In this document: piece by piece, positions 18,712-33,574 of the stretch
Numbering within the stretch: position 1 is the first letter of the stretch
Layout of the letters: the number at the start of each line of letters is the position of its first letter
UHGV virus genome: UHGV-0219389
Length of the DNA: 33,574 nucleotides
Strand: one strand, 5' to 3'
Source: a virus
Program-made: the position numbers and the translations under genes
Notes under the pieces: model-generated
Seen by the model: the letters and a program-made list of their open reading frames with translations, nothing else
What the model was told of the DNA's origin: nothing
The model's database searches: none

Positions 18712-19875
18712 ATGGGAAACCTGAATGAAACAGAAAAGTGGGAAGAAAATATCTATCAACTGGAGACATCAGATCCGGTTCTGGGTGGTGCTGACGGGAT
18801 ATCAAATCGAGCCCCCCGGCAACTGGCAAACAGGACGAAATGGCTGAAGAAAAAAACGGAGGAAGCCGCACAGTCACTGGCTGAACACGTACGTTCCCGT
18901 AACCACCCGGACGCGACACTGACAGCTAAGGGGTTCACCCAACTGAGCAGTGCCACCAACAGCACCTCTGAAACGCTGGCCGCCACACCAAAAGCCGTCA
19001 AGGCTGCATACGACCTTGCAGCCGGCAAGGCGCCCGTCAGCCACACTCACCCGTGGAGTCAGATAACGGGAGTGCCTGCTGCCTCGCTGACGGCAAAAGG
19101 CACCGTACAACTGAGCAGCGCCATCAACAGCACGTCTGAAACGCTGGCCGCCACACCGAAAGCGGTCAAGGCTGCATACGATCTGGCAAACGGAAAACAA
19201 CCGGCAGATGCCACGCTCACTGCTCTGGCAGGACTTGCCACTGCAGCAGATCGGTTGCCTTATTTTACCGGAGCAGACCGCGCAGCGCTGGCAACCCTTA
19301 CAGCTATTGGTCGCGCTATTATCGCTAAGGGCAGTATAAAAGATGTCCTCAATTACCTTGGTTTGGGGGAAGGCTCTGCATTGCCTGTTGGTGTACCGGT
19401 TCCGTGGCCCACCGCCACACCGCCAGCAGGCTGGTTAAAGTGCGACGGGCGCGCCTTTACAAAAGAACAATATCCTGTTCTGGCCAGAGTCTACCCGACC
19501 CTCCGTCTTCCCGATTTACGCGGTGAGTTTATCCGTGGATGGGACGACGGGCGCAAAGTTGATACAGGACGTAAGTTGCTGTCCGCACAAGGGGCAACGC
19601 TGTTAAGAACAGCAATGCTGGATTATTATAACCAGGACACTACGGGAACCTCGGGGATAGTCGGCATGGGATTCAACAATGAAGATTCCATTACAGACCT
19701 TCGTGAGGGCAGCTTTAAAATGCCGGACGGGACAACATTCAGCGATCCTGTCATGGCAATGTCAGACAATGGTATGCAGGCTACTATTCTGACCTCTATC
19801 AGAAGCGGGTATGCGAAGGGTATCACTGTCAGACCCCGTAGCATTGCACTTAATTACATTGTGAGGGCAGTTTAA
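18712..19875 (+). CDS. tail fiber protein (constant N-part plus invertible C-terminal variant Sv)
   Basis: ATG at 18712; internal repeats TAKG(F/T)xQLSSA(T/I)NSTSETLAATPKAVKAAYDLA; C-terminal part from about 19360 lies in the invertible segment. Confidence 0.8.
   Translation: MGNLNETEKWEENIYQLETSDPVLGGADGISNRAPRQLANRTKWLKKKTEEAAQSLAEHVRSRNHPDATLTAKGFTQLSSATNSTSETLAATPKAVKAAYDLAAGKAPVSHTHPWSQITGVPAASLTAKGTVQLSSAINSTSETLAATPKAVKAAYDLANGKQPADATLTALAGLATAADRLPYFTGADRAALATLTAIGRAIIAKGSIKDVLNYLGLGEGSALPVGVPVPWPTATPPAGWLKCDGRAFTKEQYPVLARVYPTLRLPDLRGEFIRGWDDGRKVDTGRKLLSAQGATLLRTAMLDYYNQDTTGTSGIVGMGFNNEDSITDLREGSFKMPDGTTFSDPVMAMSDNGMQATILTSIRSGYAKGITVRPRSIALNYIVRAV
18921..19200. repeat. intragenic tail-fiber repeat, 2 copies about 168 bp apart
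   Basis: Duplicated 30-aa motif in the fiber shaft. Confidence 0.7.
19346..19371. other. gix-like crossover site, left (tcctcaattacc-TT-GGTTTGGGGGAA)
   Basis: 26-bp site with inner half-site matching the Hin/Gin/Cin half-site pattern GGTTTnnnnnAA; central TT. Confidence 0.55.
19358..19437. repeat. 80-bp perfect inverted repeat, left copy
   Basis: Reverse complement identical to 20883..20962; encodes the shared peptide GLGEGSALPVGVPVPWPTATPPAGWL. Confidence 0.9.
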
Positions 19876-20495: not shown

Positions 20496-20962
20496 TCACG
20501 CCGCCCTCACGATATAGTTAAATGCGATATTGCGGGGGCGAGCTGATACATAAGCCCACCAGTCATATCTTTGTGCACCTTTAGAGGATGCATCAAATAT
20601 CCACTTTTTGCCATTTATGACCCCCAGTTGATTAGAGGTTAAAGCGTCACCAAATCCGTATTGTGTAGAGCCGAGCGAACTGATATCTCCGGTATCATTA
20701 TCATCAAAACCGGATACGATAGTCCCTTCCTGAAATGAAAGTAGCGCACGCCCGGTATCAACCTTGCGACCACCGTCCCATCCACGGATAAACTCACCGC
20801 GCAAATCGGGAAGACGGAGGGTCGGGTAGACTCTGGCCAGAACAGGATATTGTTCTTTGGTGAACGTAGCTCCGTTGCACTGTAACCAGCCTGCTGGCGG
20901 TGTGGCGGTGGGCCACGGAACCGGTACACCAACAGGCAATGCAGAGCCTTCCCCCAAACCAA
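20496..20962 (-). CDS. alternative tail fiber C-terminal segment (Sv'), promoterless
   Basis: Minus-strand frame whose N-terminal 26 aa equal residues of the + strand fiber at the inverted repeat, then diverges; both variants end ...NYIVRA. Confidence 0.7.
20883..20962. repeat. 80-bp perfect inverted repeat, right copy
   Basis: Reverse complement identical to 19358..19437. Confidence 0.9.
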
Positions 20963-20974
20963 CGTTTATCTCTC
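20949..20974. other. gix-like crossover site, right (TTCCCCCAAACC-AA-cgtttatctctc)
   Basis: Inner half-site TTCCCCCAAACC matches the invertase half-site pattern; central AA is the reverse complement of the left-site TT. Confidence 0.55.
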
Positions 20975-21029
20975 AAATCCTCCCCACATTATCTCAGTAC
21001 TTTAACCACTCAAAAGGGAGTATTTTTAA

Positions 21030-21601
21030 TGCTGATTGGCTACATACGTGTGTCAACAAATGACCAAAACACAGATTTGCAACGCAAAGCATTAATGTGC
21101 GCAGGATGTGAACAGATTTTTGAGGACAAAATGAGCGGAACCAAGTCGGAACGTCCAGGCCTGAAACGCGCTTTAAAGTGCCTTAAAAGAGGGGATACAT
21201 TGGTGGTCTGGAAGCTGGATCGGTTGGGTAGAAGAATGAAACACCTCATTGCTCTCACAGAAGAGCTACGCGCAAAAGGTGTCAATTTTCGCAGTCTGAC
21301 GGATTCAATCGATACCAGCACTCCGATGGGAAGGTTCTTTTTTCATATGATGGGTGCACTGGCAGAAATGGAGCGTGAACTGATAGTTGAGCGCACGCTG
21401 GCAGGACTGGCTGCTGCGCGAGCACAAGGGAGAGTTGGAGGACGTCGCCCGAAACTGACGAAGGAGCAGCATGAGCAGATCGCAAGATTGCTCCAGAAAG
21501 GGTATGACAGAAAGCGGCTGGCAATTATCTATGATATTGGACTGTCAACGATCTACCGCTACCACCCTGTTGGGACTGTCATAACGCAACCTGAAATGTA
21601 A
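21030..21601 (+). CDS. gin: DNA invertase (Gin/Pin/Cin/Hin family serine recombinase)
   Basis: N-terminal MLIGYIRVSTNDQNTDLQ catalytic-serine motif and C-terminal HTH; start at ATG 21030 inside track ORF 20900..21601. Confidence 0.85.
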
Positions 21602-21679
21602 TTCTTTTTCAAATAATGAAACGCCGCGTGGATGCCATTTATCGCACAAGATAGAGTGCATTTATCGCGCGGCGCATCA
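21602..21679. repeat. putative Mu-type right end with repeated transposase-binding-like motifs
   Basis: Direct repeats CATTTATCGC at 21636 and 21659, GAAACGCC motif at 21618, sequence ending ...GCGCGGCGCATCA; resembles the Mu right end from memory. Confidence 0.45.
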
Positions 21680-21741
21680 TACAGCCCTTTAGCCTCCAGT
21701 TCTTCCGCTTTGCTGTCTTTAATCATGCTGTACCTCACTGC

Positions 21742-22167
21742 TTAAAACGGTATTCCGTCCCCGTACGGATCATCGTGCTGGCCTGTCTGTTGTTTTGCCC
21801 TGTTCAGTGCGTCAGTAGCCTGGCCCTGCTGGCCTTTTTTGCCGCCCGGTCGCGCCGTTCGCGCACTGATTACGCTGTCTGCGATGACCTGCCAGCCCTG
21901 CCGCGTTTCGCCGTTCTGGCCTGTCCACTGGCTTACCTGCATGTTACCCGCCACGCTCACCAGTTCGCCTTTCTGGTGTTTTGCCAGTGCGTCGGCCTGT
22001 CTGCCAAACGCCAGGACGGATAACCACATCGTCGCCGTTCCGTCATCTGCCTGGCTGCATGGCAGGGGAACCGCCATACTCGCCATCGCCATTTGTGTTC
22101 CCTTGCTGGTGGTCTTTAACTGCGGGTCAGCCACCAGCCGCCCGTAAGCCGCTATCTGTGCTGTCAT
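21742..22167 (-). CDS. SSB-like single-stranded DNA-binding protein
   Basis: 141 aa with Gly/Gln-rich linker and C-terminal acidic tail ending DGIPF, as in SSB (DDDIPF). Confidence 0.55.
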   Translation of the reverse strand: MTAQIAAYGRLVADPQLKTTSKGTQMAMASMAVPLPCSQADDGTATMWLSVLAFGRQADALAKHQKGELVSVAGNMQVSQWTGQNGETRQGWQVIADSVISARTARPGGKKGQQGQATDALNRAKQQTGQHDDPYGDGIPF

Positions 22168-22227
22168 GCTGTCTGTTCTCCGGTTTTAACGTTGATTGTT
22201 ACGCTTGTTTACACCCTTATGGTGAAA

Positions 22228-22376
22228 TTCTGCGGGTTATAATCGCACTTTTGCGGGTTATAACTGCCGTTTTGCGGGTTATTTTGGGTATTTTACGGGT
22301 TACGATTTTCCTGCCATTCCTTTAATAATCATATGGATACTGATTTATCCACAGAAATAACCCGCATAACCCGCAA
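22228..22376. repeat. iteron array (candidate replication origin)
   Basis: Four direct copies of (T)TTTGCGGGTTAT spaced exactly 21 bp (22231, 22252, 22273, 22294), an AT-rich spacer, then two inverted copies ATAACCCGCA (22357, 22366). Confidence 0.7.
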
Positions 22377-22403
22377 AATTTTCACCCTACACGCGAGAAA
22401 AAA

Positions 22404-24530
22404 TTAATCTTCTTCGCTTTCTGGCTGGAACATCAGCACGTAAAAAACATGCTGCTTCCCCCCAATTTTGCCGAGCGCCTTTTTCTTGTAACGGCGATCG
22501 TTACCCGCTTCCAGCATTCCGGCAGCACTCAACGCGCGGGCAAAGTGAGACGGATTAAATCCCTGTGCTATCTCACCCTCAAATACATGCGGGAACGTGT
22601 AAAAACGGAACTCGTCATCTTCGTTTCTGATACTCCCCTTTCTGTATCCGGCAAGCTCTTTAATCGGTAAATCACGCTCGTCAGAGTTGGGCCAGGGAAG
22701 GTATCTGCTGAATCCGAACGACGCTAAAAAAGCCTCTGCCTGTTCAACCATCTGTTTAAACTCCCTGTTACCCGTGCCGAACTCCTTCACCCAGGCATTA
22801 AAATTATGCTGTATGGCATCGCGGCATTCCTGCTCATCCCAGCCAGTAACATGACCTGAAAGCACAAGCGCGGCCTCCAGTATGGCAAATCGCTCCCCCA
22901 CACGGTGAACCTGTTCGCCGTAGCTCTCCGGTATCAGGTTGCGCCACCGCTCACGGCATGTCCTTACCGTGTCCTTTGCCTCCTGCTGGTGTTCTGCCAG
23001 CCATTTAACCCACTCACGACCCGCCGCCCCGTGATTTGCTGTCCAGGCATCCTTTAACGCGTCTGCGTGCGCCTTTCCGGTGCTGTATTCGTGAAATTGC
23101 GTGGCTTTTTCCATCGGAACGTTAAGCAGGCGGACAAGCTGCCCCGCTTTGACTTTTATCCCCTCCGTTTTGAGGAATGTCTCAACGTCCATTTCTCCGG
23201 TGCTGATTGCCACCGTTCGCCAGTGTTTTATCTCCCTGTTGCCGCCGTCCTTTGCCCCCTGTAATTTCCCGGAACCGTTAAACAGCGTATAGGCTGACGT
23301 GGACACCTCCCGCGCGTTTCCGGCCTGGCCTATTTCATCCAGGGGTAAAAGCCCGTCATTGTGTGCCTCTGCTTCGTTGGCGATACCTAACGCTGTGCCG
23401 TACCAGGTCAGCCGCTGCGCGTCCGGCTCTCCCCATAAACTTGATGCGATGTTCTGCGTTGTGGTCTTACCTGCCGATGACTGTTCGAAAAGATGTACCC
23501 CGAAGCCGTCAGCGCCCACCAGCCCGATTAATGGTGCGGATAACGATACCGCCACCCCCAGCATCATGGACGGATTACCACCAGCCAGTCGCGCCACGGT
23601 GTCGCGCCAGCCCTCCGCCGTTCCTGCCACGGAATAGCCATTAACAGCAGCAGTTTTTCCGGTAAACAGGACTGGCTTTTCGCAATCACCAATGACCGAA
23701 CCGTCCGGCATGATGTACGCGCCAAAATGCCAGCCCGTTGTTGTGCTTAACTGCCATTCCTCATGGCTTCCGCTTAACTGCATCCAGTCAGCCAGGATTG
23801 CCCTGTATTTACCGTTGGTTGTTACGTTCAGTCCGTGGTCTTTCAGCAGCCGCCAGCCGTCACGGTCGCCAATGCCACCGCACGGAACCGCCATTGTGAT
23901 GACTTCATGATTTGCTGGCTTTTTCCAGCGCATCACGCGGTAATGTTCTTTGCCGATTGTCCCCGTTCCCAGCAGTTCAAGCGGGGAACATAACCACGTC
24001 TCAGGCCGGATAATTTCGCCTGACTGCTTGTCCACTTTTGGCGTAACCCAGAAAACACCATCGGCGCGGCTTTCAACGCGGGGCTTTAATTCATCATCAC
24101 CCGGGCTTTCTGTGATTTTTTTCTTTAAGGGCAACACCAGACTTTCCCCGCGCTCGTATTCGTCTTTGAGGCGAGGCAACTGGTCGGATAAATCCGCCGG
24201 GCTGGTGTCAGTTATCCCCGCGTATTCGTATACGGTCTTCACGCCAGCCACAGCCAGCAACGTGACGATCTGTGTAAGGCTACGTTCAGTGATGTGCCCT
24301 GCGCGGTAAATACGCACACACTGACGGCTATCATCAATAATTTGATAACCGGTAATATCTTTCAGGTGTTCATCTGACAGAACGACAGGCGGCACATTGT
24401 CGGCGGCAATATGCTTACCTGCCCATTCCTGCCACTCTTTCGCATGGCTCCACGCATCACTACCCGCAAAGATGATAACCTCCGTCATTTTGTCGGCTGG
24501 CTGGTGCTTTAAGTTTGGTGCGCGCTTCAT
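22404..24530 (-). CDS. primase-helicase-like replication protein (P-loop NTPase)
   Basis: 708 aa with P-loop-like FEQSSAGKTT; placed beside the iterons as replication initiators are in P4-like and PICI-like elements. Confidence 0.55.
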   Translation of the reverse strand: MKRAPNLKHQPADKMTEVIIFAGSDAWSHAKEWQEWAGKHIAADNVPPVVLSDEHLKDITGYQIIDDSRQCVRIYRAGHITERSLTQIVTLLAVAGVKTVYEYAGITDTSPADLSDQLPRLKDEYERGESLVLPLKKKITESPGDDELKPRVESRADGVFWVTPKVDKQSGEIIRPETWLCSPLELLGTGTIGKEHYRVMRWKKPANHEVITMAVPCGGIGDRDGWRLLKDHGLNVTTNGKYRAILADWMQLSGSHEEWQLSTTTGWHFGAYIMPDGSVIGDCEKPVLFTGKTAAVNGYSVAGTAEGWRDTVARLAGGNPSMMLGVAVSLSAPLIGLVGADGFGVHLFEQSSAGKTTTQNIASSLWGEPDAQRLTWYGTALGIANEAEAHNDGLLPLDEIGQAGNAREVSTSAYTLFNGSGKLQGAKDGGNREIKHWRTVAISTGEMDVETFLKTEGIKVKAGQLVRLLNVPMEKATQFHEYSTGKAHADALKDAWTANHGAAGREWVKWLAEHQQEAKDTVRTCRERWRNLIPESYGEQVHRVGERFAILEAALVLSGHVTGWDEQECRDAIQHNFNAWVKEFGTGNREFKQMVEQAEAFLASFGFSRYLPWPNSDERDLPIKELAGYRKGSIRNEDDEFRFYTFPHVFEGEIAQGFNPSHFARALSAAGMLEAGNDRRYKKKALGKIGGKQHVFYVLMFQPESEED

Positions 24531-24841
24531 TTTGCCTTTCTCCGTTCACGAATAATTTCACGTACTGCCTTAATGCGTTCCATACCTGTAACGCGCATGA
24601 TTCTGTCGATGTCGCTTAAGTTCGCTGGTGGTGCTTTGCTTACCAGGGTGAATTCACTCTCAAAACGCATATGTGACGACACGCAGGGATGCGCATAACC
24701 TTCGCGGATATAGGTCACGCGAAAATCATCGACGGTTTTAATCGTTATCGTGCTGCCGTATTTATCCTGGAAAATATCGCCGGGGCGGATTTCAGGCCGA
24801 GCGGAGCCGCTGGCAGTAAAGCCAGAATTTTTCTTTTTCAT
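24527..24841 (-). CDS. hypothetical protein, coupled to the primase gene
   Basis: 104-aa ORF overlapping the primase start by 4 bp. Confidence 0.45.
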   Translation of the reverse strand: MKKKNSGFTASGSARPEIRPGDIFQDKYGSTITIKTVDDFRVTYIREGYAHPCVSSHMRFESEFTLVSKAPPANLSDIDRIMRVTGMERIKAVREIIRERRKAK

Positions 24842-24847
24842 GTTTTT

Positions 24848-25066
24848 TTACTCCAGAGGCCGCTTTTTAGCGAAGAGTTCAATATCAGATGTCAGAGAAA
24901 CCTGTGTATTTGCCAGGTCTAACAACAAAGAAATAAGAATTTCCTCTCTGCTATCTGATTTATCGGTGCTAAGGCTGTTCATCCACATATTGACGACTTC
25001 CCTGATTTTTTTCGCAGAGTGCATGGCTTCAAATGCCAGGTCTTCAATATCATGTTTATTTCGCAT
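24848..25066 (-). CDS. hypothetical small protein
   Basis: Internal ATG of track ORF 24848..25132, chosen to limit overlap with the upstream gene. Confidence 0.35.
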   Translation of the reverse strand: MRNKHDIEDLAFEAMHSAKKIREVVNMWMNSLSTDKSDSREEILISLLLDLANTQVSLTSDIELFAKKRPLE

Positions 25067-25268
25067 AATCGCCCCCGCGTAACTGGTCTGCACTAACACC
25101 CGATTTAGTGAGCATTTCAGAAAATCCCGCAAGAGTGCTGATAAATTCGTTTTCCATTAAACGGCACTGGCATTTAACCCGGCCTTTTTCCAGATACACC
25201 AGTACGCACCCCGTATAATCTGACGGCACATTCAGCACTACAGATAAGTGCGCTTCATTATTATTCAT
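25056..25268 (-). CDS. hypothetical small protein
   Basis: 70-aa ORF in the same operon. Confidence 0.35.
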   Translation of the reverse strand: MNNNEAHLSVVLNVPSDYTGCVLVYLEKGRVKCQCRLMENEFISTLAGFSEMLTKSGVSADQLRGGDYAK

Positions 25269-25497
25269 GGCTCACCACCTCCATATCAGCCATGATAATT
25301 TTGCTGGCCTCATTCAGTGCCATATCAGCACTAAGTTGCATTACAGCCAGTGAATGAGGAACGAAAGCCCCGGCATATTCTGTTTCGCTGGTGGCGTGCT
25401 TATGCGCCTTGTCTGCGATAACAGAAATATCAATCAGCGCGTGCATCAGCGTTTTGATGGCTTCGGCGGCTGCGTCCGGACGGGTGTTATTGCACAT
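25261..25497 (-). CDS. hypothetical small protein
   Basis: 78-aa ORF overlapping its neighbours at both ends. Confidence 0.35.
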   Translation of the reverse strand: MCNNTRPDAAAEAIKTLMHALIDISVIADKAHKHATSETEYAGAFVPHSLAVMQLSADMALNEASKIIMADMEVVSHE

Positions 25498-25693
25498 GGA
25501 GCACCCCCTGACGAATACGGGCGGCGAATACCATCACGCAGCCAGCCGGGGATTGCTGGCGTGCTTCCTGTTCGCTGGTGGCCACGATGTGAATCACGCG
25601 CGGTTGTGCGGTGCTCAGGGCGATAAAACGCCAGATGTATTTATTCAGGTTGTGCGAGTCCCGCCCTTGCGGGTGTGTGGTATGATTTCTCAT
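25487..25693 (-). CDS. hypothetical small protein, first gene of the leftward operon
   Basis: 68-aa ORF from ATG 25693 with GAGG RBS; this is the C-terminal part of the 301-aa track ORF, whose upstream part crosses operator palindromes. Confidence 0.4.
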   Translation of the reverse strand: MRNHTTHPQGRDSHNLNKYIWRFIALSTAQPRVIHIVATSEQEARQQSPAGCVMVFAARIRQGVLHVQ

Positions 25694-25770
25694 AGCTACC
25701 TCGATACTCTTGCTATCGTTGGTGGTTAGACGCCCTGCATGTGTTGCGAGCACTGCGGGGCGTTGCTTAA

Positions 25771-25826
25771 TTTGAGTGACAAAACTCAAACTGTGCGCAC
25801 AGATTAAAATCATGTGTGCGCACATG
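25771..25826. promoter_or_regulatory. divergent promoter/operator region with palindromes
   Basis: TTTGAGT-N6-ACTCAAA at 25771-25790; perfect palindrome TGTGCGCACA at 25792-25801 and again at 25815-25824; half-site TGTGCGC near 25862. Confidence 0.6.
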
Positions 25827-25898
25827 TCAATACTTAACATCTCATTTTTTTTGCTGTATTGTGTGCGCCCATAAAGTCCATTTAAGTGAGGTGCATCA

Positions 25899-26096
25899 AT
25901 GTCTAGCGGTAACACAAACAACAAATCAGCAAAGAAAAATATTCGATTCCCACATGAGCTTATAGATGGGATTGATGCCAGCGTTGAACAAGAAAAATTA
26001 ACTAATCCTAGTGCTAATTTTTCCGCATGGGTCTTAGATGCCTGTGGACGCAAATTAAAATATGAACAGCGCCGGAAGGCCAAAGAATCAGAATAA
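25899..26096 (+). CDS. ribbon-helix-helix (Arc/Mnt-like) putative repressor
   Basis: 65 aa; segment KNIRFPHELIDGIDASVEQEKLTNPSANFSAWVLDAC has the beta-strand/helix/helix pattern of Arc (RWPREVLDLVRKVAEENGRSVNSEIYQRV, from memory). Confidence 0.5.
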   Translation: MSSGNTNNKSAKKNIRFPHELIDGIDASVEQEKLTNPSANFSAWVLDACGRKLKYEQRRKAKESE

Positions 26097-26138
26097 TCAC
26101 TATCAGCGCCGTGGTGTGAGTAACTACGGCGCATTGCT

Positions 26139-26327
26139 ATGCAGGACAACACAATGACCGATAAAGAATTGACCAAAACATTATCACCGACACGGAAAAG
26201 ACGGCGCAGAAAGATAGAGCATGAATCAGAAAGATTCGCACCTTGTTCGTTTGCTCTTGAGAAATTCCTTAAAGAGCGCAGGAAAAAGCTCTCGTTGCAA
26301 ACCTTGGAACGAACCAAATCTGACTGA
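26139..26327 (+). CDS. hypothetical basic protein
   Basis: 62-aa Lys/Arg-rich ORF downstream of the RHH gene; weak RBS. Confidence 0.25.
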   Translation: MQDNTMTDKELTKTLSPTRKRRRRKIEHESERFAPCSFALEKFLKERRKKLSLQTLERTKSD

Positions 26328-26460
26328 TCACATTGCCCACCAGCCGCAAATGTGGCATTGTTGGTGATGCTTTTGTTTTCCCTTGTTCCCACTGGCTACC
26401 CTTTTGCGGTCGCCTTTGTTTTGCCTGTTATCCGGCAATAGTGGCGCTTCGTCACCTGTC

Positions 26461-26549
26461 TGATATAATTCCACTGCTTATATTCATTTTTTGCGCAGTA
26501 GGTTAATTGTTCGCAAGGGCGCTCCGGCAACGGGGCGCTTTTTGTTTTT
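26461..26549 (+). ncRNA. candidate small RNA (extended -10 promoter to intrinsic terminator, about 70 nt)
   Basis: TGaTATAAT at 26461-26469; stem-loop TTGCG..CGCAA; terminator GCGCTCCG-GCAA-CGGGGCGC + TTTTTGTTTTT at 26519-26549; no ORF with RBS between. Confidence 0.35.
26519..26549 (+). terminator. intrinsic terminator (8-bp stem, GCAA tetraloop, U-tract)
   Basis: GCGCTCCG / CGGGGCGC stem with one G-U pair, followed by TTTTTGTTTTT. Confidence 0.6.
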
Positions 26550-26707
26550 ACCCACCAGCACAATAAAAATCTTCATTTTCCATTTTTGTAAAATTTCATG
26601 CTTTCCGGACGACTGGTCATATGTCATTTTTTAGCAGAAGATTTTGCCTTGCTGGTGGGTAGCTTCCCGGTCAACACGATGTACCGTATAATCAACACCG
26701 CGTGTGG

Positions 26708-27292
26708 TTACTGAATACGCTCACCAAAGTAAAACTCAGGCTGGTATTCACGTATCAGCCTTTTTTCTTCTTCCTCCAGCTCACGCTTTTTGCGCTTACA
26801 TGCCTGTAGCTCCCTCCCCTTCTCGCTGGCACTTATCTGATATTGCTCTTTGCGGCGGGAAAAATCCTGTAATGCGCCCCACGGGATACCATAAGCCCCC
26901 GTTTTTCTGATACCCGGTATCACATTTCTGAATACCCAGTTACTGAAACGATGGGCGAACGTGCCAGGAGTAGCAGCTTTGCGACTTCTGGCAATCAGCT
27001 TGTAAAAGCCAGATTCAGAAACGACGCTATGATTTGGATTTCCGCGAATACCGTAAGTTAAAGTTACGGTATTACTTTCATCATCATCCAGAGCTTGCAA
27101 CGCCATGCGTGAATTGGATAATTCAAGCGCCGCACAAACATCCTTTGCAACAAACCACGGATCGCCGTTCAGATACACCACACGAACATCCACGCCATCA
27201 AAACGTAGAACGACCTGATCACGAATATCGCAGAATTTTTTCACTGGACGTGCATTCCCCTTGCCCATCATGGCAATATTTTTATTCATCAC
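26708..27292 (-). CDS. Bro-N domain antirepressor-like protein
   Basis: N-terminal motif DGDPWFVAKDVCAALEL characteristic of Bro-N; 194 aa; GAGG RBS. Confidence 0.65.
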   Translation of the reverse strand: MMNKNIAMMGKGNARPVKKFCDIRDQVVLRFDGVDVRVVYLNGDPWFVAKDVCAALELSNSRMALQALDDDESNTVTLTYGIRGNPNHSVVSESGFYKLIARSRKAATPGTFAHRFSNWVFRNVIPGIRKTGAYGIPWGALQDFSRRKEQYQISASEKGRELQACKRKKRELEEEEKRLIREYQPEFYFGERIQ

Positions 27293-27308
27293 TTTCTACC
27301 TCACATAC

Positions 27309-27336
27309 AAAAAACCCCGCATTGCGTGGTGCGGGG
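27309..27336 (-). terminator. intrinsic terminator after the AlpA-like gene
   Basis: Minus-strand stem CCCCGCA / TGCGGGG followed by TTTTTT. Confidence 0.55.
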
Positions 27337-27346
27337 TTGTCGGTAA

Positions 27347-27625
27347 TTACTTATTGGCGTTTTTGTATGGGCTGTTTACTTCCTTTACTCCTGGCGGATG
27401 CATAACCCACCAGAGCACATCAGAGAGCAACCAGGAAACAGACACTTTCCCTAAATGAGCACGAGCAGGAAATGCTCCCTCCTGTTCAAGTACCCAACGT
27501 CTGCTTCTTGAAAGCCCGGTACGATTGGCACACTCATGTTCGCGTATACGGCGATCATACGGTTCGCCATGCTCTTTCAGAATCTGAATGCGTTCTTCGG
27601 GTGTAGGATAAATAAATTTTTGCAT
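27347..27625 (-). CDS. AlpA-family HTH regulator
   Basis: Start at internal ATG 27625 (MQKF...) with AGGTGA RBS; TGLSRS..W HTH pattern. Confidence 0.55.
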   Translation of the reverse strand: MQKFIYPTPEERIQILKEHGEPYDRRIREHECANRTGLSRSRRWVLEQEGAFPARAHLGKVSVSWLLSDVLWWVMHPPGVKEVNSPYKNANK

Positions 27626-27637
27626 AAAAATATCACC

Positions 27638-27665
27638 TATAAAAAAACCCGCCAAAAGACGGGTT
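27638..27665 (-). terminator. intrinsic terminator-like hairpin between the two AlpA-like genes
   Basis: Minus-strand stem AACCCG / CGGGTT followed by a 7-nt U-run. Confidence 0.45.
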
Positions 27666-27688
27666 GATTATATCTCATTTAATTTAGC

Positions 27689-27910
27689 TCAGGGTTTCCA
27701 TTCACCCTTTACCCATTCCAGCACCTCAGATAAGCGCCAGACTTTTGTTTGTGGGCCAATACATATTTTTCGTGGAAATTTTCCTTCCTTTTCAAGTAAC
27801 GATCTGTGTCTCCTGCCAAGAGCGGTTAACCATGCACATTCATCTTCCTTAATCATCCTGTCGATTGTTTTATCATTTTCAAGTTCTTCACGCGTAACTA
27901 TTTGAATCAT
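27689..27910 (-). CDS. excisionase/AlpA-like HTH protein
   Basis: Small ORF overlapping the integrase 3' end; AlpA-like pattern (ECAWLTALGRRHRSLLEKEGKFP). Confidence 0.5.
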   Translation of the reverse strand: MIQIVTREELENDKTIDRMIKEDECAWLTALGRRHRSLLEKEGKFPRKICIGPQTKVWRLSEVLEWVKGEWKP

Positions 27911-29111
27911 TACCGTCACCACTAATTAGCTTATTCAGATAGTCATACCACCAATTCATAGCTTCTTTTTTTCTGTCCATATACTGGCTTCTGTTATAAA
28001 CCCCGGCAACACCGCCTAATGTGTGCCCAAGCAACTGTTCAACCACATTATGTTCAAAACCATGATCACTTAGCTTTGTGGCAAACACTCTTCGCATATC
28101 ATGCGCCGTCCATTTCTCCGAGTGTTTCATCCTTTTCCATGTCTTACCGATAGTTACGCTTGCCGTACACTGACGCATATCAAACCCAATCACATTTTCT
28201 TTGTTACCTGTTATTTTTTTTAACGTAACTAACCAGTTAAACATGCCATCAGGAATCGGTCTGATTATTTCCCTGCCATTTTTGCTATGATCAGCGGGAA
28301 CGCGCCATAATTTCTTATCAAAATCCCACTCTCCCCAGGAGGACAGTAATACTTCTGACAGTCGACAACCAAAAACTACCAGGAAACGTAAAATAATTCG
28401 GTTTTCATATGATAATTCGTGATTGTCATAATCAGTATTAATACTTCGCCATAAATCTCTGATTTCATCATCTGTTAAAACCCTGCTTCTTCGCGCAGAC
28501 TTTTTTCCCACATCACAGACCTCAAGATCATCAATTTCATGACTAATCGCGTATTTTCTTACCCGACAAAATTTAAGCGCCTGTTTTGATATACGCAACA
28601 AAGCTCCGGCCTGTACAGGTGCTACTTTTTTTATTTTGTCAAAACACTTGATCCACATAGATATAGAGCAATCACTAAGTGGTACATGACCAATCACCGG
28701 ATAAATATGTTTACCAAAGCACTGCCTGATATGTTCTGCTCCCCTACGCTTATCCATTGCATAATTATCAAGCCAGTATTCAAGTGCCTCACGAACGGTA
28801 ACAGGTTGCAAGGTGGCTTCCCGTTCAATTTTTATCTGAATCCGTGGATCTCTGCCCTCCGCAAGCCAGGTTCGACACTGATCGCGCATCTCTCTCGCTG
28901 ATTTGAGACTCAGATCAGGATATTTCCCAAGTGTCAGCCAGATGGGCGCGGTTCCCCTTCCCGCCAGTCTGTAAAAGAAAACAAAACTAACACATCCGTA
29001 TTTACTGACCCGTACCGAAAGCCCGTTACCATCAGCGATGGTTTCCTGCCTCTCACTCCTGCGCCCAAGCAGGGAACGAAGTTTTTTATCGCTCAGTTTG
29101 TTTAGCGCCAT
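27888..29111 (-). CDS. int: tyrosine integrase (P4-type)
   Basis: N-terminal MALNKLSDKK...GNGLSVRVSKYG resembles P4-family integrase; C-terminal HDMRR...LLGH...Y catalytic region; start taken at ATG 29111. Confidence 0.85.
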   Translation of the reverse strand: MALNKLSDKKLRSLLGRRSERQETIADGNGLSVRVSKYGCVSFVFFYRLAGRGTAPIWLTLGKYPDLSLKSAREMRDQCRTWLAEGRDPRIQIKIEREATLQPVTVREALEYWLDNYAMDKRRGAEHIRQCFGKHIYPVIGHVPLSDCSISMWIKCFDKIKKVAPVQAGALLRISKQALKFCRVRKYAISHEIDDLEVCDVGKKSARRSRVLTDDEIRDLWRSINTDYDNHELSYENRIILRFLVVFGCRLSEVLLSSWGEWDFDKKLWRVPADHSKNGREIIRPIPDGMFNWLVTLKKITGNKENVIGFDMRQCTASVTIGKTWKRMKHSEKWTAHDMRRVFATKLSDHGFEHNVVEQLLGHTLGGVAGVYNRSQYMDRKKEAMNWWYDYLNKLISGDGNDSNSYA

Positions 29112-29116
29112 GTGAT

Positions 29117-30310
29117 TTATAACCCGTTTTTGCAATACACAGTGCAATACACAAATGATGAAAACAGCCAGAACCTTCCAGAAAAAACAAAAACGACGAA
29201 CAAGAAAAAATCTTTTTCTTTCATTTGGTTACTAAAAAAATCAGGACAGGTCGCACTGTTGTTACGGCGTGATGTTACTTTCTTGGTAAAAAAATTCACC
29301 CGCGCAGAGACCTGCTCCTTCGCTTTTTTCGCCAGACGACGCAGATCATCCCAGCGTTTACAGATGCCCAGGCCAGGATTCGCTTTCTGCCAGACCGTTT
29401 CATCAAACGGATCATCTCCCTCATCAAGCGTGTAAATGATCGCAAAGTAAGAGTCGTCTTTTACAGCGCCCTCCACGTCGCTGTTATAGCCTCGCAATAC
29501 CTTGATGGCGTAATCACGCTGCTCGTAACAAATCCCTTCCTTGTTAAAGCCAGCCGTGGTGATACCAAATAACAGGGACTGCAGACGGGCACCGGTTGCC
29601 GTTTCCAGAACGTCCCACACGTCGCGGGTTTTATGTGCATGCAGCTCATCAATAATGGCGCAGTGGATGTTCAGACCGTCCAGGTTGTTTGCATCCGAGG
29701 AAAGCGGTTCAAATTTTGATGCGCTCTGCTCCTGGTAAATCGCCAGCTTGTTGAAATCAAACAACCGCCCGAGTGTCGACCGGGCTTTTCTGACCATATT
29801 TTTGGCGTCTTCAAACACGATTCTGGCCTGGTCAAGCGTGGTTGCGGCTGAATACACCTCAGCTCCGCCTTCACTATCTGCCCCCGTCATATACAGACCG
29901 ATACCCGATGACAGGGTTGATTTTGCGTTTTTACGGGCAACTTCGTTGTATGCTGTCCGGAACCGGCGCACCATCACCGGGCGTCCACTGCCATCGCTGC
30001 GCATGACAACTTCCCCGGTTTCTTCATTCACCAGCGGAATGACAAAACCAAAAATATTAATGAGGATAAACACATGCCAGTCCATCAACTCAATGGGCTG
30101 ACCTGCCAGCGCCCCTTTCACATGGGGTACAAATTTGTAGAAATTAAGGATGTGCTGTGCACGAGGTTCACTGAAATAAATCCCCCGCTCTTCGCCGTAC
30201 TTCAGATCATCAAGAAAACGCTGGCAGGCCAGACGGACAAATTCGCCAGCAACAATTTCTCCTGCAACAACACGTTCGGCGTAGCGGATCCCGTCAGCCA
30301 CTTTTGCCAT
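29117..30310 (-). pseudogene. terminase large subunit, 3'-truncated (ATPase domain only)
   Basis: terL-like sequence through about residue 340 (..WQKANPGLG..), then low-complexity tail from AT-rich DNA abutting the integrase start. Confidence 0.65.
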
Positions 30311-30792
30311 CAGTCTCTCGCTTTTAAAAGCTCTGCCAGCGGATCAACATCATCCGGTCCGGCGGTATTTACTTTCGCCCGGCTTGCCGGTGACATACCA
30401 AACTCTGCAAGCATCGCCCGAATCCGCTTCCAGGCATCAGCCTTCATCGCAGCAGCCGGGTGTGCCTTGATCAGCACATCGCCATTCTGCGTTTTCGTGC
30501 GGTAGGTATAACCCTCAACATCGAGTATTTCGCAGTGATGCCGGTATTCGGTGTAGGCTTCCACCAGTAACTCGAGCGCACGTGCATCGAGCTGAGAAAT
30601 GATCCCTTCCGCATTCAGCTCTTCCGCCATTCGCCTGAACCAGTACTTCCCCTGCGCCCCTAAATGTTGCGGAATTTTAGGGAGACCTTTTTCATCCTTT
30701 TTAGCGGTTTTTTTGAGGTCTTTAACTGGCCGCTTTGAGGGGTTGCCTCGTATCAAATGCAGGCGTGGCGGGATTTTCGGGGGTCCAGACAT
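30310..30792 (-). CDS. terminase small subunit (P27-family-like)
   Basis: 160-aa ORF with stop overlapping the terL start; position between HNH and terL. Confidence 0.65.
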   Translation of the reverse strand: MSGPPKIPPRLHLIRGNPSKRPVKDLKKTAKKDEKGLPKIPQHLGAQGKYWFRRMAEELNAEGIISQLDARALELLVEAYTEYRHHCEILDVEGYTYRTKTQNGDVLIKAHPAAAMKADAWKRIRAMLAEFGMSPASRAKVNTAGPDDVDPLAELLKARD

Positions 30793-30939
30793 AATCGGTT
30801 TTACCTATCAATCATTTAATCACATTCCAAAAAAAAGTTTTCGAACCTGCGGCGATGCGAGGAAAGGTCAGGCGGCGGTACTGAGCAGCCAGGGTTGCAG
30901 AGATTTGACCTGCCCCTCCCCTACAGATGGGAACTGTTA

Positions 30940-31290
30940 TCAATTGATGCGTTCGCGCGCTGTTTTTGCTTTATGACAGGGCCAGCACAGACTCTGCAGG
31001 TTACTGTCTGCATCCGTGCCACCATGAGCTTTCGGAATGATGTGGTCCACAGTTCTGGCTTCAACGGCTCTCCCATTGCGCAGGCAGTTCTGACACAGAT
31101 GATTATCACGCTTCAGTATGCGCGCACGTATGGCATCCCATTTCGAGCCATAGCCACGCTGGTGGCGGCTCAGTCCGCGTTGATGCTGTACCCATCCTTC
31201 GCCACGATGTTTATCGCAGTAACCAGAACTGTCTGTGGTTGTACCTGCACATCCACGCTTACGGCAGGCGCGTGGGATTCGTGGGGGCAT
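30940..31290 (-). CDS. HNH endonuclease
   Basis: Motif CQNCLRNGR...DHIIPKAHGG...NLQSLCWPCH; start at ATG 31290 (MPPRIP) with GGAG RBS. Confidence 0.8.
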   Translation of the reverse strand: MPPRIPRACRKRGCAGTTTDSSGYCDKHRGEGWVQHQRGLSRHQRGYGSKWDAIRARILKRDNHLCQNCLRNGRAVEARTVDHIIPKAHGGTDADSNLQSLCWPCHKAKTARERIN

Positions 31291-31410
31291 ATGTACTCCA
31301 ATGAAGAAGCCACCGACATAGCCTCCTCCATTCATAGTGAAACTATTTTCATCTACCCAGTAATGAATTCTTTGTAGAGTTGTGATCAATACAACTCACT
31401 AATGGAGAGG

Positions 31411-31445
31411 CTTGTCCAACACGTTGGACAAGTTTCCTGTTTGAT
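31411..31445 (+). terminator. 10-bp inverted repeat (CTTGTCCAAC-ac-GTTGGACAAG) followed by a T-rich run
   Basis: Perfect arms at 31411-31432, then tttcctgtttgattt. Confidence 0.35.
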
Positions 31446-31815
31446 TTACTGGACACTATAGAAGGACAGAATGCCTTCATCACTCGAATAACATCAATTA
31501 AGGAGGTTCAACATGTTTCATTCCACAAATCATCAGGCTGTAATTATGGCTGCATCAGCTTGTGCCACAGACCTTTTCCGCTTCACTTTGAGCCTGATTC
31601 ATTTCTACCTGACCGGCTCGCCTCTATCTTTTTAATCCCCGCTTTATCCAAATTGCATTGCCAGAATGCCGACAACAGACTGACATTCAAATCCTGACTA
31701 CCTCCAATAGGCTGAGCATCCACCTATATAGTTTTAATTTTCATCAATCCATTTAACTATCGTTTAATTGTTGTCACATAGGATTCTGCCATTTTTAACA
31801 ATGCAGGATAATAAG

Positions 31816-32109
31816 ATGAAAAAAATGTTGTTTTCTGCCGCTCTGGCAATGCTTATTACAGGATGTGCTCAACAGACGTTTACTGTTGGAAACAAACCGA
31901 CAGCAGTAACACCAAAGGAAACCATCACCCATCATTTCTTCGTTTCGGGAATTGGACAGGAGAAAACTGTTGATGCAGCCAAAATTTGTGGCGGCGCAGA
32001 AAATGTTGTTAAAACAGAAACCCAGCAAACATTCGTAAATGGATTTCTCGGTTTTATTACTTTAGGCATTTATACTCCACTGGAAGCGCGTGTGTATTGC
32101 TCACAATAA
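31816..32109 (+). CDS. bor: Bor outer-membrane lipoprotein
   Basis: 97 aa; MKKMLFSAALAMLITGCAQQTFTV... with lipobox ITGC, nearly identical to lambda Bor as remembered; opposite strand to Rz as in lambda. Confidence 0.85.
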   Translation: MKKMLFSAALAMLITGCAQQTFTVGNKPTAVTPKETITHHFFVSGIGQEKTVDAAKICGGAENVVKTETQQTFVNGFLGFITLGIYTPLEARVYCSQ

Positions 32110-32140
32110 TTGCATGAGTTGCCCATCGATATGGGCAGCT

Positions 32141-32602
32141 CTATCTGCACTGCTCATTAATATACTTCTGGGTTCCTTCCAGTTGTTTTTGCATAGTGAT
32201 CAGCCTCTCTCTGAGGGTGAAATAATCCCGTTCAGCGGTGTCTGCCAGTCGGGGGCTGGTTGCATTATCCACGCCGGAGGCGGTGGTGGCTTCACGCACT
32301 GACTGACAGACTGCTTTGATGTGCAACCGACGACGACCAGCGGCAACATCAGCGCGCAGAGTTTCATTTTCAGCTTTCGCATTGGCTAATTCTCTCGAGT
32401 ACTTTGCATCGAGTGCAGCAACATCACGCTGACGCTGCTGCATGTCAGCGATGGTGGCGATCGCCTGCTTCAGCTCACTGACTTTTTTATCACGCTGTTC
32501 TTTGTAGGCGATGGCGTTATCACGGTAATGATTGACCGCCCACGACAGGCAGACGATGATGCAGATAACCAAAGCATAAATAATCGCGGCGACTCTGCTC
32601 AC
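32141..32602 (-). CDS. Rz: i-spanin Rz
   Basis: N-terminal transmembrane segment and coiled-coil periplasmic domain, near-identical to lambda Rz as remembered; probable GTG start at 32602 overlapping the endolysin stop. Confidence 0.8.
32200..32382 (-). CDS. Rz1: o-spanin Rz1 lipoprotein, embedded in Rz in the +1 frame
   Basis: 60 aa, lipobox VVGC, proline-rich KPPPPPAW, ends ..SPSERG, lying entirely inside Rz. Confidence 0.85.
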
Positions 32603-33132
32603 TGCTCTATCCCCCAACAGGCTAATGCGCTTTCCTGGTCACGACGAATAACCTGTCCATAGCAGTTATTTGAACGTATGCGGCAATCGCGCCCACCATC
32701 TTTTATCCACCAGCGAATCGCCTCGCATGCGCCCTTACGATCACCGGCATTCAGCCGCTTATAAAACGTCGACGGGAAACACTTACCGGGGCCAATGTTA
32801 TAGGGACAGAATGACGCTATACCCGCTTTTTGTGGTTCGGTCAGTGGTACTTTAATATTGCGCTCCACCCATGCCAGCGCCTTATCACGCTCAATGGCGT
32901 TGACCTGGTCGCATTTTTCCTTCGACAGTTTCATACCGGGAAAAACGGGTTTTCCATCCACCATCGTGGCACCCCGACAGATGGTCCAGATGCCGGACCC
33001 ATCGCGGTATGCCGTTGTGTGGTTACCTTCTTTTTCATCCAGAAACTGGTCGAGAATATCAGGCGCGGGCGCACCGACGGCAATCAGTGCCAGAACGGCA
33101 GCCGACAGGCCGTATCTGATTTTTGCGTTCAT
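32599..33132 (-). CDS. endolysin (lysozyme), SAR-type
   Basis: 177 aa with N-terminal weakly hydrophobic segment [16 protein letters not shown]; resembles prophage RrrQ/RrrD-type lysozymes from memory. Confidence 0.8.
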
Positions 33133-33195
33133 GGATATTTATCAGGATTTATCGGTTTCTGCCCACGGACAGGTTTATCTGTTCCGGTCAGTGAC

Positions 33196-33546
33196 TTAAG
33201 GTTGTGATTCCGGAGGAGTCTTCAGAGAACCAGTAATTCTTCCCGGTAGCTTTCCTTTGTAGGTTATCCATACATTCTGCGCCTCTAAAATTACGGGGCG
33301 CTTTTCCGGCGACTGCTCATCCCCTTCACATAACCCGGCAGCAACATCCAGGAAGACCTGTCTGATGCTCATTCTGGCTGCTGCCTCATAAAACTCCAGC
33401 GCGGCACCTTCAACACGGTCCAGCGAGATGTCCAGGTCAAAAATTTCACCGTCAAAGCGTTTTTTGTCCCGTAACGCTAAAGTTACCGTAACTTTATTCT
33501 CAAAATTGCGGATCCCTTTCACAATCAGTTCATAGTTTTGAGTCAT
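33196..33546 (-). CDS. DUF1327 (YdfR-like) phage protein
   Basis: 116-aa ORF immediately upstream of the endolysin; placement between holin and lysozyme as in Qin-type cassettes (from memory). Confidence 0.4.
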   Translation of the reverse strand: MTQNYELIVKGIRNFENKVTVTLALRDKKRFDGEIFDLDISLDRVEGAALEFYEAAARMSIRQVFLDVAAGLCEGDEQSPEKRPVILEAQNVWITYKGKLPGRITGSLKTPPESQP

Positions 33547-33574
33547 TGAATTACTCTCCCCGTGCAGCCTTACG

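Follow-up and report, generated by a model that had tools for sequence, protein, structure and literature searches.

A helper-embedded satellite in the large terminase gene of a lambdoid Escherichia coli prophage, interrupted by a Mu-like prophage

Elements that reside within a protein-coding gene and divide it include the skin element in sigK of Bacillus subtilis and the phi10403S prophage in comK of Listeria. Among phage satellites, the helper-embedded PICIs (HE-PICIs) were defined by Tommasini, Mageeney and Williams in 2023 (NAR Genom Bioinform 5:lqad036; PMC10111431), with 491 HE-PICIs assigned to 14 sites within counterparts of the lambda late genes. Supplementary File 1 of that study lists, for E. 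coli 042, the entry 'Eco33.15.A_Terminase_1_246, FN554766.1/2250958-2235714' at locus A_Terminase_1_246, with Eco33.57.zinT|mtfA as helper, 'ttaccaa' as the att identity block, and the note 'reannotate term_int fusion' (PMC10111431). A doubled motif, tgTGTATTGCantgTGTATTGCa, was reported as unique to HE-PICI attP sites, lying 81 +/- 2 bp upstream and 132 +/- 2 bp downstream of the centre; C4/isrK immunity RNAs occur in some HE-PICI Bro zones, many of the helpers appear truncated, and the integrases show off-target insertions, a case published for A_246 being an insertion into yeaN (PMC10111431). The same authors proposed that excision is triggered by helper late read-through, and showed experimentally for the element 11capE that the whole composite excises and replicates after induction, the satellite itself excising later (PMC10111431). 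A second relevant group, the capsid-forming PICIs (cf-PICIs; prototype EcCIEDL933), characterised by small capsids of their own and the use of helper tails only, has been described at six chromosomal attB sites (Alqurainy et al., bioRxiv 10.1101/2022.09.08.507074).

The DNA considered here, referred to as the window, is a stretch of 33,574 nucleotides from the virus genome UHGV-0219389, and all positions without further label are those of the window. In all probability it records a ~15-kb HE-PICI of cf-PICI layout that integrated site-specifically in the terL gene of a helper prophage and was later split by a Mu-like prophage. The element is assigned, from its sequence, to site group A:Terminase_1:246, and both the phenomenon and the exact site have therefore been known since 2023. 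A first-pass annotation had regarded a satellite within a helper's packaging gene as an unusual interference strategy, and in this respect it was anticipated by the published site group (PMC10111431). The addition beyond that group is the Mu-like insertion in a perC-like gene, a curiosity.

The interrupted terminase gene and its att site

The features of the helper flank and of the junction are as follows.

30940-31389, minus strand: helper HNH endonuclease
30310-30792, minus strand: helper small terminase subunit (P27 family; Pfam Terminase_4, E 1.7e-25), with the same annotation in 042 and IHE3034
29282-30310, minus strand: 5' part of helper terL, codons 1-343 of 585 (341/343 against intact IHE3034 TerL)
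29283-29289, minus strand: att core TTACCAA (crossover/identity block) of attL, common to attL, attR and attB
29115-29282, minus strand: P' arm of the satellite attP, 36% GC; its translation is what was earlier taken for a 'low-complexity tail' on the terL' ORF
29132-29151, minus strand: doubled arm-type motif TGTATTGCACTGTGTATTGC, HE-PICI attP-specific, with one exact match in the window
attB: GTGAATTTTTTTACCAAACACATG
attL: GTGAATTTTTTTACCAAGAAAGTAAC
attR: GAAATATTCTTACCAAACACATG

On the minus strand, genes for lysozyme, Rz, the HNH endonuclease and the small terminase subunit, with bor on the plus strand between Rz and HNH, lead to a 397-aa ORF (29117-30310). Its Pfam TerL_ATPase domain is complete and its match to the TerL_nuclease profile is confined to positions 2-68 of 286, such that the truncated gene, terL', keeps the ATPase domain and the first ~60 residues of the nuclease domain. 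Alignment to the intact 585-aa TerL of E. coli IHE3034 gives 341 identities in 343 positions as far as Lys343 and no relationship beyond, the last 54 codons of the ORF being drawn from 36%-GC DNA; GC content is ~52% in terL and 36% between the core and the int ATG (29115-29282). The alignment bears out the first-pass annotation, which had described terL as truncated at the integrase junction, and fixes the breakpoint at the core TTACCAA. Of the earlier breakpoint claim, the change from terminase to tail holds, whereas the position given (29300, after EQVSAR) does not, as genuine terL extends six codons further (VNFFTK) to reach the 7-bp core at 29283-29289, which overlaps codons 341-343 (F-T-K). 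Intact homologues are of 585 aa, not 343, which argues against a naturally short gene, and the break falls precisely at an att core and not at the edge of an unrelated deletion.

The core is common to attL, attR and attB when the window is compared with loci L001, L004, L033 and L002; the junction sequences expected on excision are GGGTGAATTTTTTTACCAAACACATGAATG for attB and ATATTCTTACCAAGAAAGTAAC for attP. Between the core and int, the arm is the same in the attL sites of 042 and UMNF18, except for a 1-nt difference in a T-run in 042, and that of OkiPb01701 also has one substitution relative to the window. Reverse-complemented, the AT-rich stretch gives the attL arm sequence published for the A_246 group, and the doubled TGTATTGC motif has one exact match in the window and none in 100 shuffles. 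The start of this motif lies 135 nt past the core centre on the downstream side (133 nt when the tg prefix is counted), and an upstream copy ends 79 nt from the centre in 042, OkiPb01701 and UMNF18, the corresponding position being outside the window here. Because both the arm sequence and the doubled motif match the published HE-PICI group, the 'low-complexity tail' is identified by sequence as the P' arm of the satellite attP, translated through in the terL frame. Comparison of terL' with the arm shows that the latter supplies no replacement for terL.

OkiPb01701 (L003) carries a variant core, TCACGAA, at both attL (17518 region) and attR (2501 region), with a synonymous terL allele, which points either to a separate integration event, into another terL allele, or to an attP that carries the same variant.

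The first-pass annotation had further described the tail as AT-rich DNA holding the integrase promoter region and had seen no tRNA-like sequence at the junction. The base composition is as described, whereas the promoter was not recovered, with zero sites found across 28900-30900 by a simple, crude scan for the sigma-70 consensus; an equally crude scan gave no terminator-like sites between terL' and int, and its two matches in 28900-30900 are within terL coding sequence and at chance level. ARAGORN found no tRNA anywhere in the window, and Rfam gave no match in the window at gathering thresholds, C4/isrK immunity RNAs included. The earlier statement on tRNA is thus upheld, and a tRNA or other RNA was rejected as the target at the junction.

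The proximity of terL' and int raised the question of translational coupling. In the window (where a TAA precedes the ATG at 29112-29114), OkiPb01701 and UMNF18, no stop closes the terL' frame until 5 nt before the start codon of int, and in 042 (L001 20312-20519) one extra T fuses terL' in frame to int, giving a RefSeq integrase of 445 aa. Coupling or fusion as a conserved feature was nevertheless rejected: 2-6% of shuffled arms are equally open (p ~0.02-0.06), the T-rich half of the arm has no stop codon in any of the three frames, and in an Arsenophonus attL of the same site group our translation of the published sequence meets a stop 19 codons after the core. The open read-through frame is probably compositional rather than selected, and it is unlikely that translational coupling of Int to the truncated TerL is under selection.

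The satellite and its relatives in E. coli

Downstream of terL', the following satellite features lie in the window.

27888-29114, minus strand: tyrosine integrase (P4/PICI-type, HE-PICI clade), 407 aa; Pfam Arm-DNA-bind_3 and Phage_integrase
27689-27910, minus strand: first alpA-like gene (excisionase/regulator); Pfam Phage_AlpA, E 1.9e-9
27347-27625, minus strand: second alpA-like gene; Pfam Phage_AlpA, E 7.2e-10
26708-27292, minus strand: Bro-N domain protein ('Bro zone'); Pfam Bro-N, E 1.7e-17
24527-24841, minus strand: DUF4222 protein (replication zone); Pfam DUF4222, E 2.2e-18
22404-24530, minus strand: primase/helicase (DUF927); Pfam DUF927, E 5.4e-46
21742-22167, minus strand: SSB; Pfam SSB, E 3.8e-16
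21680-21726, minus strand: first 47 nt of a perC-like gene, cut by the Mu-like prophage; the alignment to 042 begins at 21680

The satellite nature of the inserted element, assumed in the first-pass annotation, is supported by its integrase, which is identical at 403 of 407 positions to that of Eco33.15.A_Terminase_1_246 from E. coli 042; the assignment to the HE-PICI clade is made by this 99% identity to a catalogued member and not from a tree. The int, alpA and primase genes are all on the minus strand, downstream of and co-oriented with terS-terL'. The integration, Bro and replication zones follow the published order, and the late zone is cut off at 21680, where the Mu-like prophage interrupts the satellite; an isogenic relative, GCA_046707385.1 (L017), has this zone.

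The variable Bro zone also holds a 301-aa ORF (25487-26392, minus strand) with no Pfam match, annotated as a gene in several assemblies, which overlaps a plus-strand gene of the DUF3950/YlcI family (25899-26096). Part of the adjoining ~24180-25495 has no alignment to the 042 element.

Among 5426 complete E. coli genomes, a survey for the same int beside terL found 36 with the full-length 901-bp junction (28800-29700); the occupied junction was also seen in 10 contigs of IMG/VR and in 13 others. The uninterrupted site, reconstituted by joining the two 042 terL halves, which yields an open frame, is present in 905 of the 5426 at identities of up to 99.9%. In 042, two alpA genes and those for Bro-N, DUF4222, the DUF927 primase, SSB and PerC come after int in the same orientation. 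Next are genes for a major capsid protein, prohead protease, portal, connector, HNH, terS and a complete, different terL, and lastly there is a 'TerL endonuclease subunit, missing N-terminus', beyond which the surrounding prophage continues with its own portal, protease and capsid genes. Equal nests are found in OkiPb01701 and UMNF18, whose host prophages differ in their lysis and early regions; OZ039488.1 holds the fourth complete nest.

These four genomes, 042, OkiPb01701, UMNF18 and OZ039488.1, contain the attR core as a direct repeat at the other end of the element together with the terL 3' part, confirming the first-pass proposal that the integration target is a site inside terL. From core to core the complete relatives measure 14,978-15,851 bp, and in-silico removal of the 15,851-bp element from OZ039488.1 gives a 585-aa ORF again. 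Between the satellite's own TerL and that of the helper, identity is only 32%. No cf-PICI head and packaging genes are visible in the window; they are present in relatives with an identical SSB and primase backbone.

An identical SSB and replication/capsid backbone (DUF927 or D5-type primase, and major capsid protein to terL) also sits at rcnR|thiM and cspD|clpS, in copies (L025-L034, e.g. L025 3850-18213) that carry different integrases. From this occurrence at chromosomal sites beside other integrases, cf-PICI-type satellites appear able to exchange their integrase/att module.

A Mu-like prophage within the satellite

The remainder of the window consists of a single feature.

1-21679, plus strand: transposable Mu/BcepMu-like prophage (right-hand 21.7 kb), with 98.7% identity to Escherichia phage PhiKM

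This part carries terminase, portal, head and tail genes, an invertible tail-fibre segment and a Gin-like recombinase, and its end at 21679 reads ...GCGCGGCGCATCA. From 21680 onwards the window matches 042 (L001 13144, in the PerC CDS), placing the insertion 47 nt into the perC-like gene, and TACAG (21680-21684) is the expected 5-bp target duplication. Mu-like prophages related to PhiKM are common in E. coli; in KE54 the same Mu-like end adjoins aroA, and the prophage encodes a DDE transposase, Gam and an ExeA family protein, the last of which we read as a MuB-like ATPase.

The Mu-perC junction was found in no complete E. coli genome of the collection, nor in any IMG/VR contig. An identical junction is present in four independent assemblies (L016, L018, L020 and L022), all of whose contigs bearing it end inside the Mu-like prophage; its recurrence in independent assemblies argues for a propagating lineage and not an assembly error. 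In L017, 11.9 kb are 100.000% identical to window positions 21680-33574, and there perC is intact and followed by the capsid gene. Since the flanks are 100.000% identical to this uninterrupted relative, the Mu-like insertion is taken to be recent.

As judged from these comparisons, the window is a three-level nest, of a Mu-like prophage in an HE-PICI in a lambdoid prophage. With the Mu-like prophage inserted in perC, the late module of the satellite, attR and the 3' part of terL would lie on its far side, out of the window. Beyond the Mu-like prophage, ...CTCTCCGGTACAG would join the Mu-like left end, to be followed by the rest of perC and the satellite late genes, which would in turn lead to ...ATATTCTTACCAAACACATGAATG and the 3' 242 codons of terL. 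The satellite in the source genome is probably no longer packageable as a 15-kb unit, because int, alpA and the replication genes are split from the capsid/packaging module and attR.

The Mu-like insertion is most simply a random transposition. That the nesting is more than an accident, the insertion either locking terL 'off' or making a mobile, excisable composite of ~50 kb bounded by Int sites, is unlikely; were it true, a third phage would control both the satellite and its helper.

Two features of the Mu-like prophage stand apart from the nesting. Inverted repeats of 229 nt (19355-19583 and 20737-20965, 90% complementary) flank alternative fibre C-termini and a tail-fibre assembly gene, with the Gin-like recombinase at 21029-21601; contig L016 has this segment inverted relative to the window, which shows that both states of the switch occur in nature. 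The tape-measure gene (10860-13811) contains a 261-bp tandem duplication (12676-13210, 2.0 copies, 92% identical), and encodes a protein of 983 aa, compared with 883 aa for the homologue in KE54; a longer tail might result.

Proposed mechanism, rival explanations and comparison with known systems

It is proposed that a P4/PICI-type tyrosine integrase recombines the satellite attP with TTACCAA in terL of an HK97-type lambdoid E. coli prophage. The insertion separates the ATPase domain from most of the nuclease domain. As attP carries no replacement sequence, the helper would be unable to make TerL while the satellite is integrated, and would remain without it until the satellite excises. Helper late transcription probably enters the satellite and drives Int/AlpA-mediated excision; such read-through is suggested by the co-orientation of int, alpA and the replication genes with terS-terL' and by the lack of a terminator-like site in the crude scan. 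Precise recombination at the core would then restore terL exactly, a form of 'regulated gene integrity' serving the satellite. Excision and its timing are predictions for the terL site, modelled on the related 11capE, for which alone they have been seen experimentally. To judge from the relatives, the satellite's own TerL would sit in a full head-and-packaging module, the layout of cf-PICIs.

Two rival accounts of the junction itself were considered. The truncation could have been left by an unrelated deletion or an illegitimate recombination event as the prophage decayed, which by chance placed a chromosomal integrase island beside the terL 5' half, as only one junction lies within the window, and the rest of terL and the pairing core repeat do not; yet the break is exactly at a 7-bp core that is common to attR and attB elsewhere, it recurs in the 36 complete genomes and in the IMG/VR and other contigs counted above, its carriers are prophages with different lysis and early regions and include a variant core, removal of the element restores the ORF, and the missing end is accounted for by a Mu-like insertion with a defined end, all of which make a deletion scar scarcely credible. 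An accidental secondary-site integration by a PICI whose usual attB is chromosomal (a tRNA gene, fis, hpt or rcnR|thiM) would be in keeping with the backbone of identical SSB that occurs at rcnR|thiM and cspD|clpS with other integrases, and with the off-target insertion of HE-PICI integrases (PMC10111431). The chromosomal copies, however, have different integrases (406 or 412 aa, with other neighbouring genes), the integrase type of the window is at terL in all cases examined, the published off-target event runs in the opposite direction, from A_246 to yeaN (PMC10111431), and the arm motifs have the HE-PICI-clade spacing; an accident of this kind is very improbable.

Site-specific integration of an HE-PICI in terL being by far the preferred account of the junction, a separate matter is whether the switch still works in the source genome. 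It is a serious possibility, held tentatively, that the element is now a dead relic and that the Mu-like insertion leaves the helper terL permanently knocked out. The Mu-like prophage splits the satellite after SSB, a circle formed by Int would comprise ~15 kb plus a Mu-like genome (34.7 kb in PhiKM) and far exceed a 15-kb capsid load, the insertion has persisted into four independent assemblies, and many HE-PICI helpers look truncated (PMC10111431). Set against this, int, both alpA genes and attL are intact, the insertion is recent, with 11.9 kb of flank 100.000% identical to an uninterrupted relative, and excision requires only int, alpA, attL and attR, so that repair of terL may work if attR is intact.

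Satellites embedded in late genes alter the view of phage-satellite conflict, a point made in 2023 with a catalogue that includes this site (PMC10111431): an embedded satellite would exert control in cis over an essential helper gene, and would be replicated and transcribed together with its helper. For annotation, a 'terminase pseudogene' beside an 'integrase' can be recognised as one attL of an HE-PICI, and the window should be treated as a composite of three mobile elements and not as a single prophage, which prophage and satellite callers will mis-delimit. The Mu-interrupted element and its isogenic uninterrupted relative provide a natural pair for asking whether terL repair needs an intact HE-PICI.

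The closest described system is Eco33.15.A_Terminase_1_246 of E. coli 042, which shares with the window the target gene, the core TTACCAA, the arm sequence, the doubled motif, a 99% identical integrase and the order int-alpA-alpA-Bro-DUF4222-DUF927-SSB-PerC. Most of the DNA common to the two is 94-97% identical, and a stretch of ~1.3 kb in the Bro zone diverges. Unlike the 042 element, the window copy is split in perC by the Mu-like prophage and has its late module and attR outside the window, its arm T-run is one base shorter, and terL' stops 5 nt before int where 042 has an in-frame fusion. The experimentally studied 11capE is likewise a satellite in, and co-oriented with, a helper late gene, with an integrase of the same clade, the same arm motif and a target disrupted without replacement sequence. 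It differs in targeting the capsid gene E, in having a 10-bp block as core and in its length of 11 kb; moreover, 11capE lacks terS and is presumed to use helper cos packaging, whereas the terL-site elements have their own HNH-terS-terL and head genes.

With the cf-PICIs, the relatives of the window element share genes for capsid protein, protease, portal, connectors, HNH, terS and terL, and the uninterrupted relatives, like cf-PICIs, are without tail genes, have PICI-type int, alpA and primase and are ~15 kb long, a likeness of gene content; the window backbone differs in carrying an integrase/att module for a prophage terL. P4-like and other classical satellites that enter the 3' end of a tRNA gene, with a replacement sequence in attP, differ from the window, which has no tRNA and whose attP arm holds no terL-restoring sequence. 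The locus also resembles the regulated gene integrity and active-lysogeny switches, in which a gene is split without replacement and precise excision restores the ORF, as found here in silico; in contrast to these, the interrupted gene belongs to the helper phage and not to the host, and its regulation is presumed to serve the satellite.
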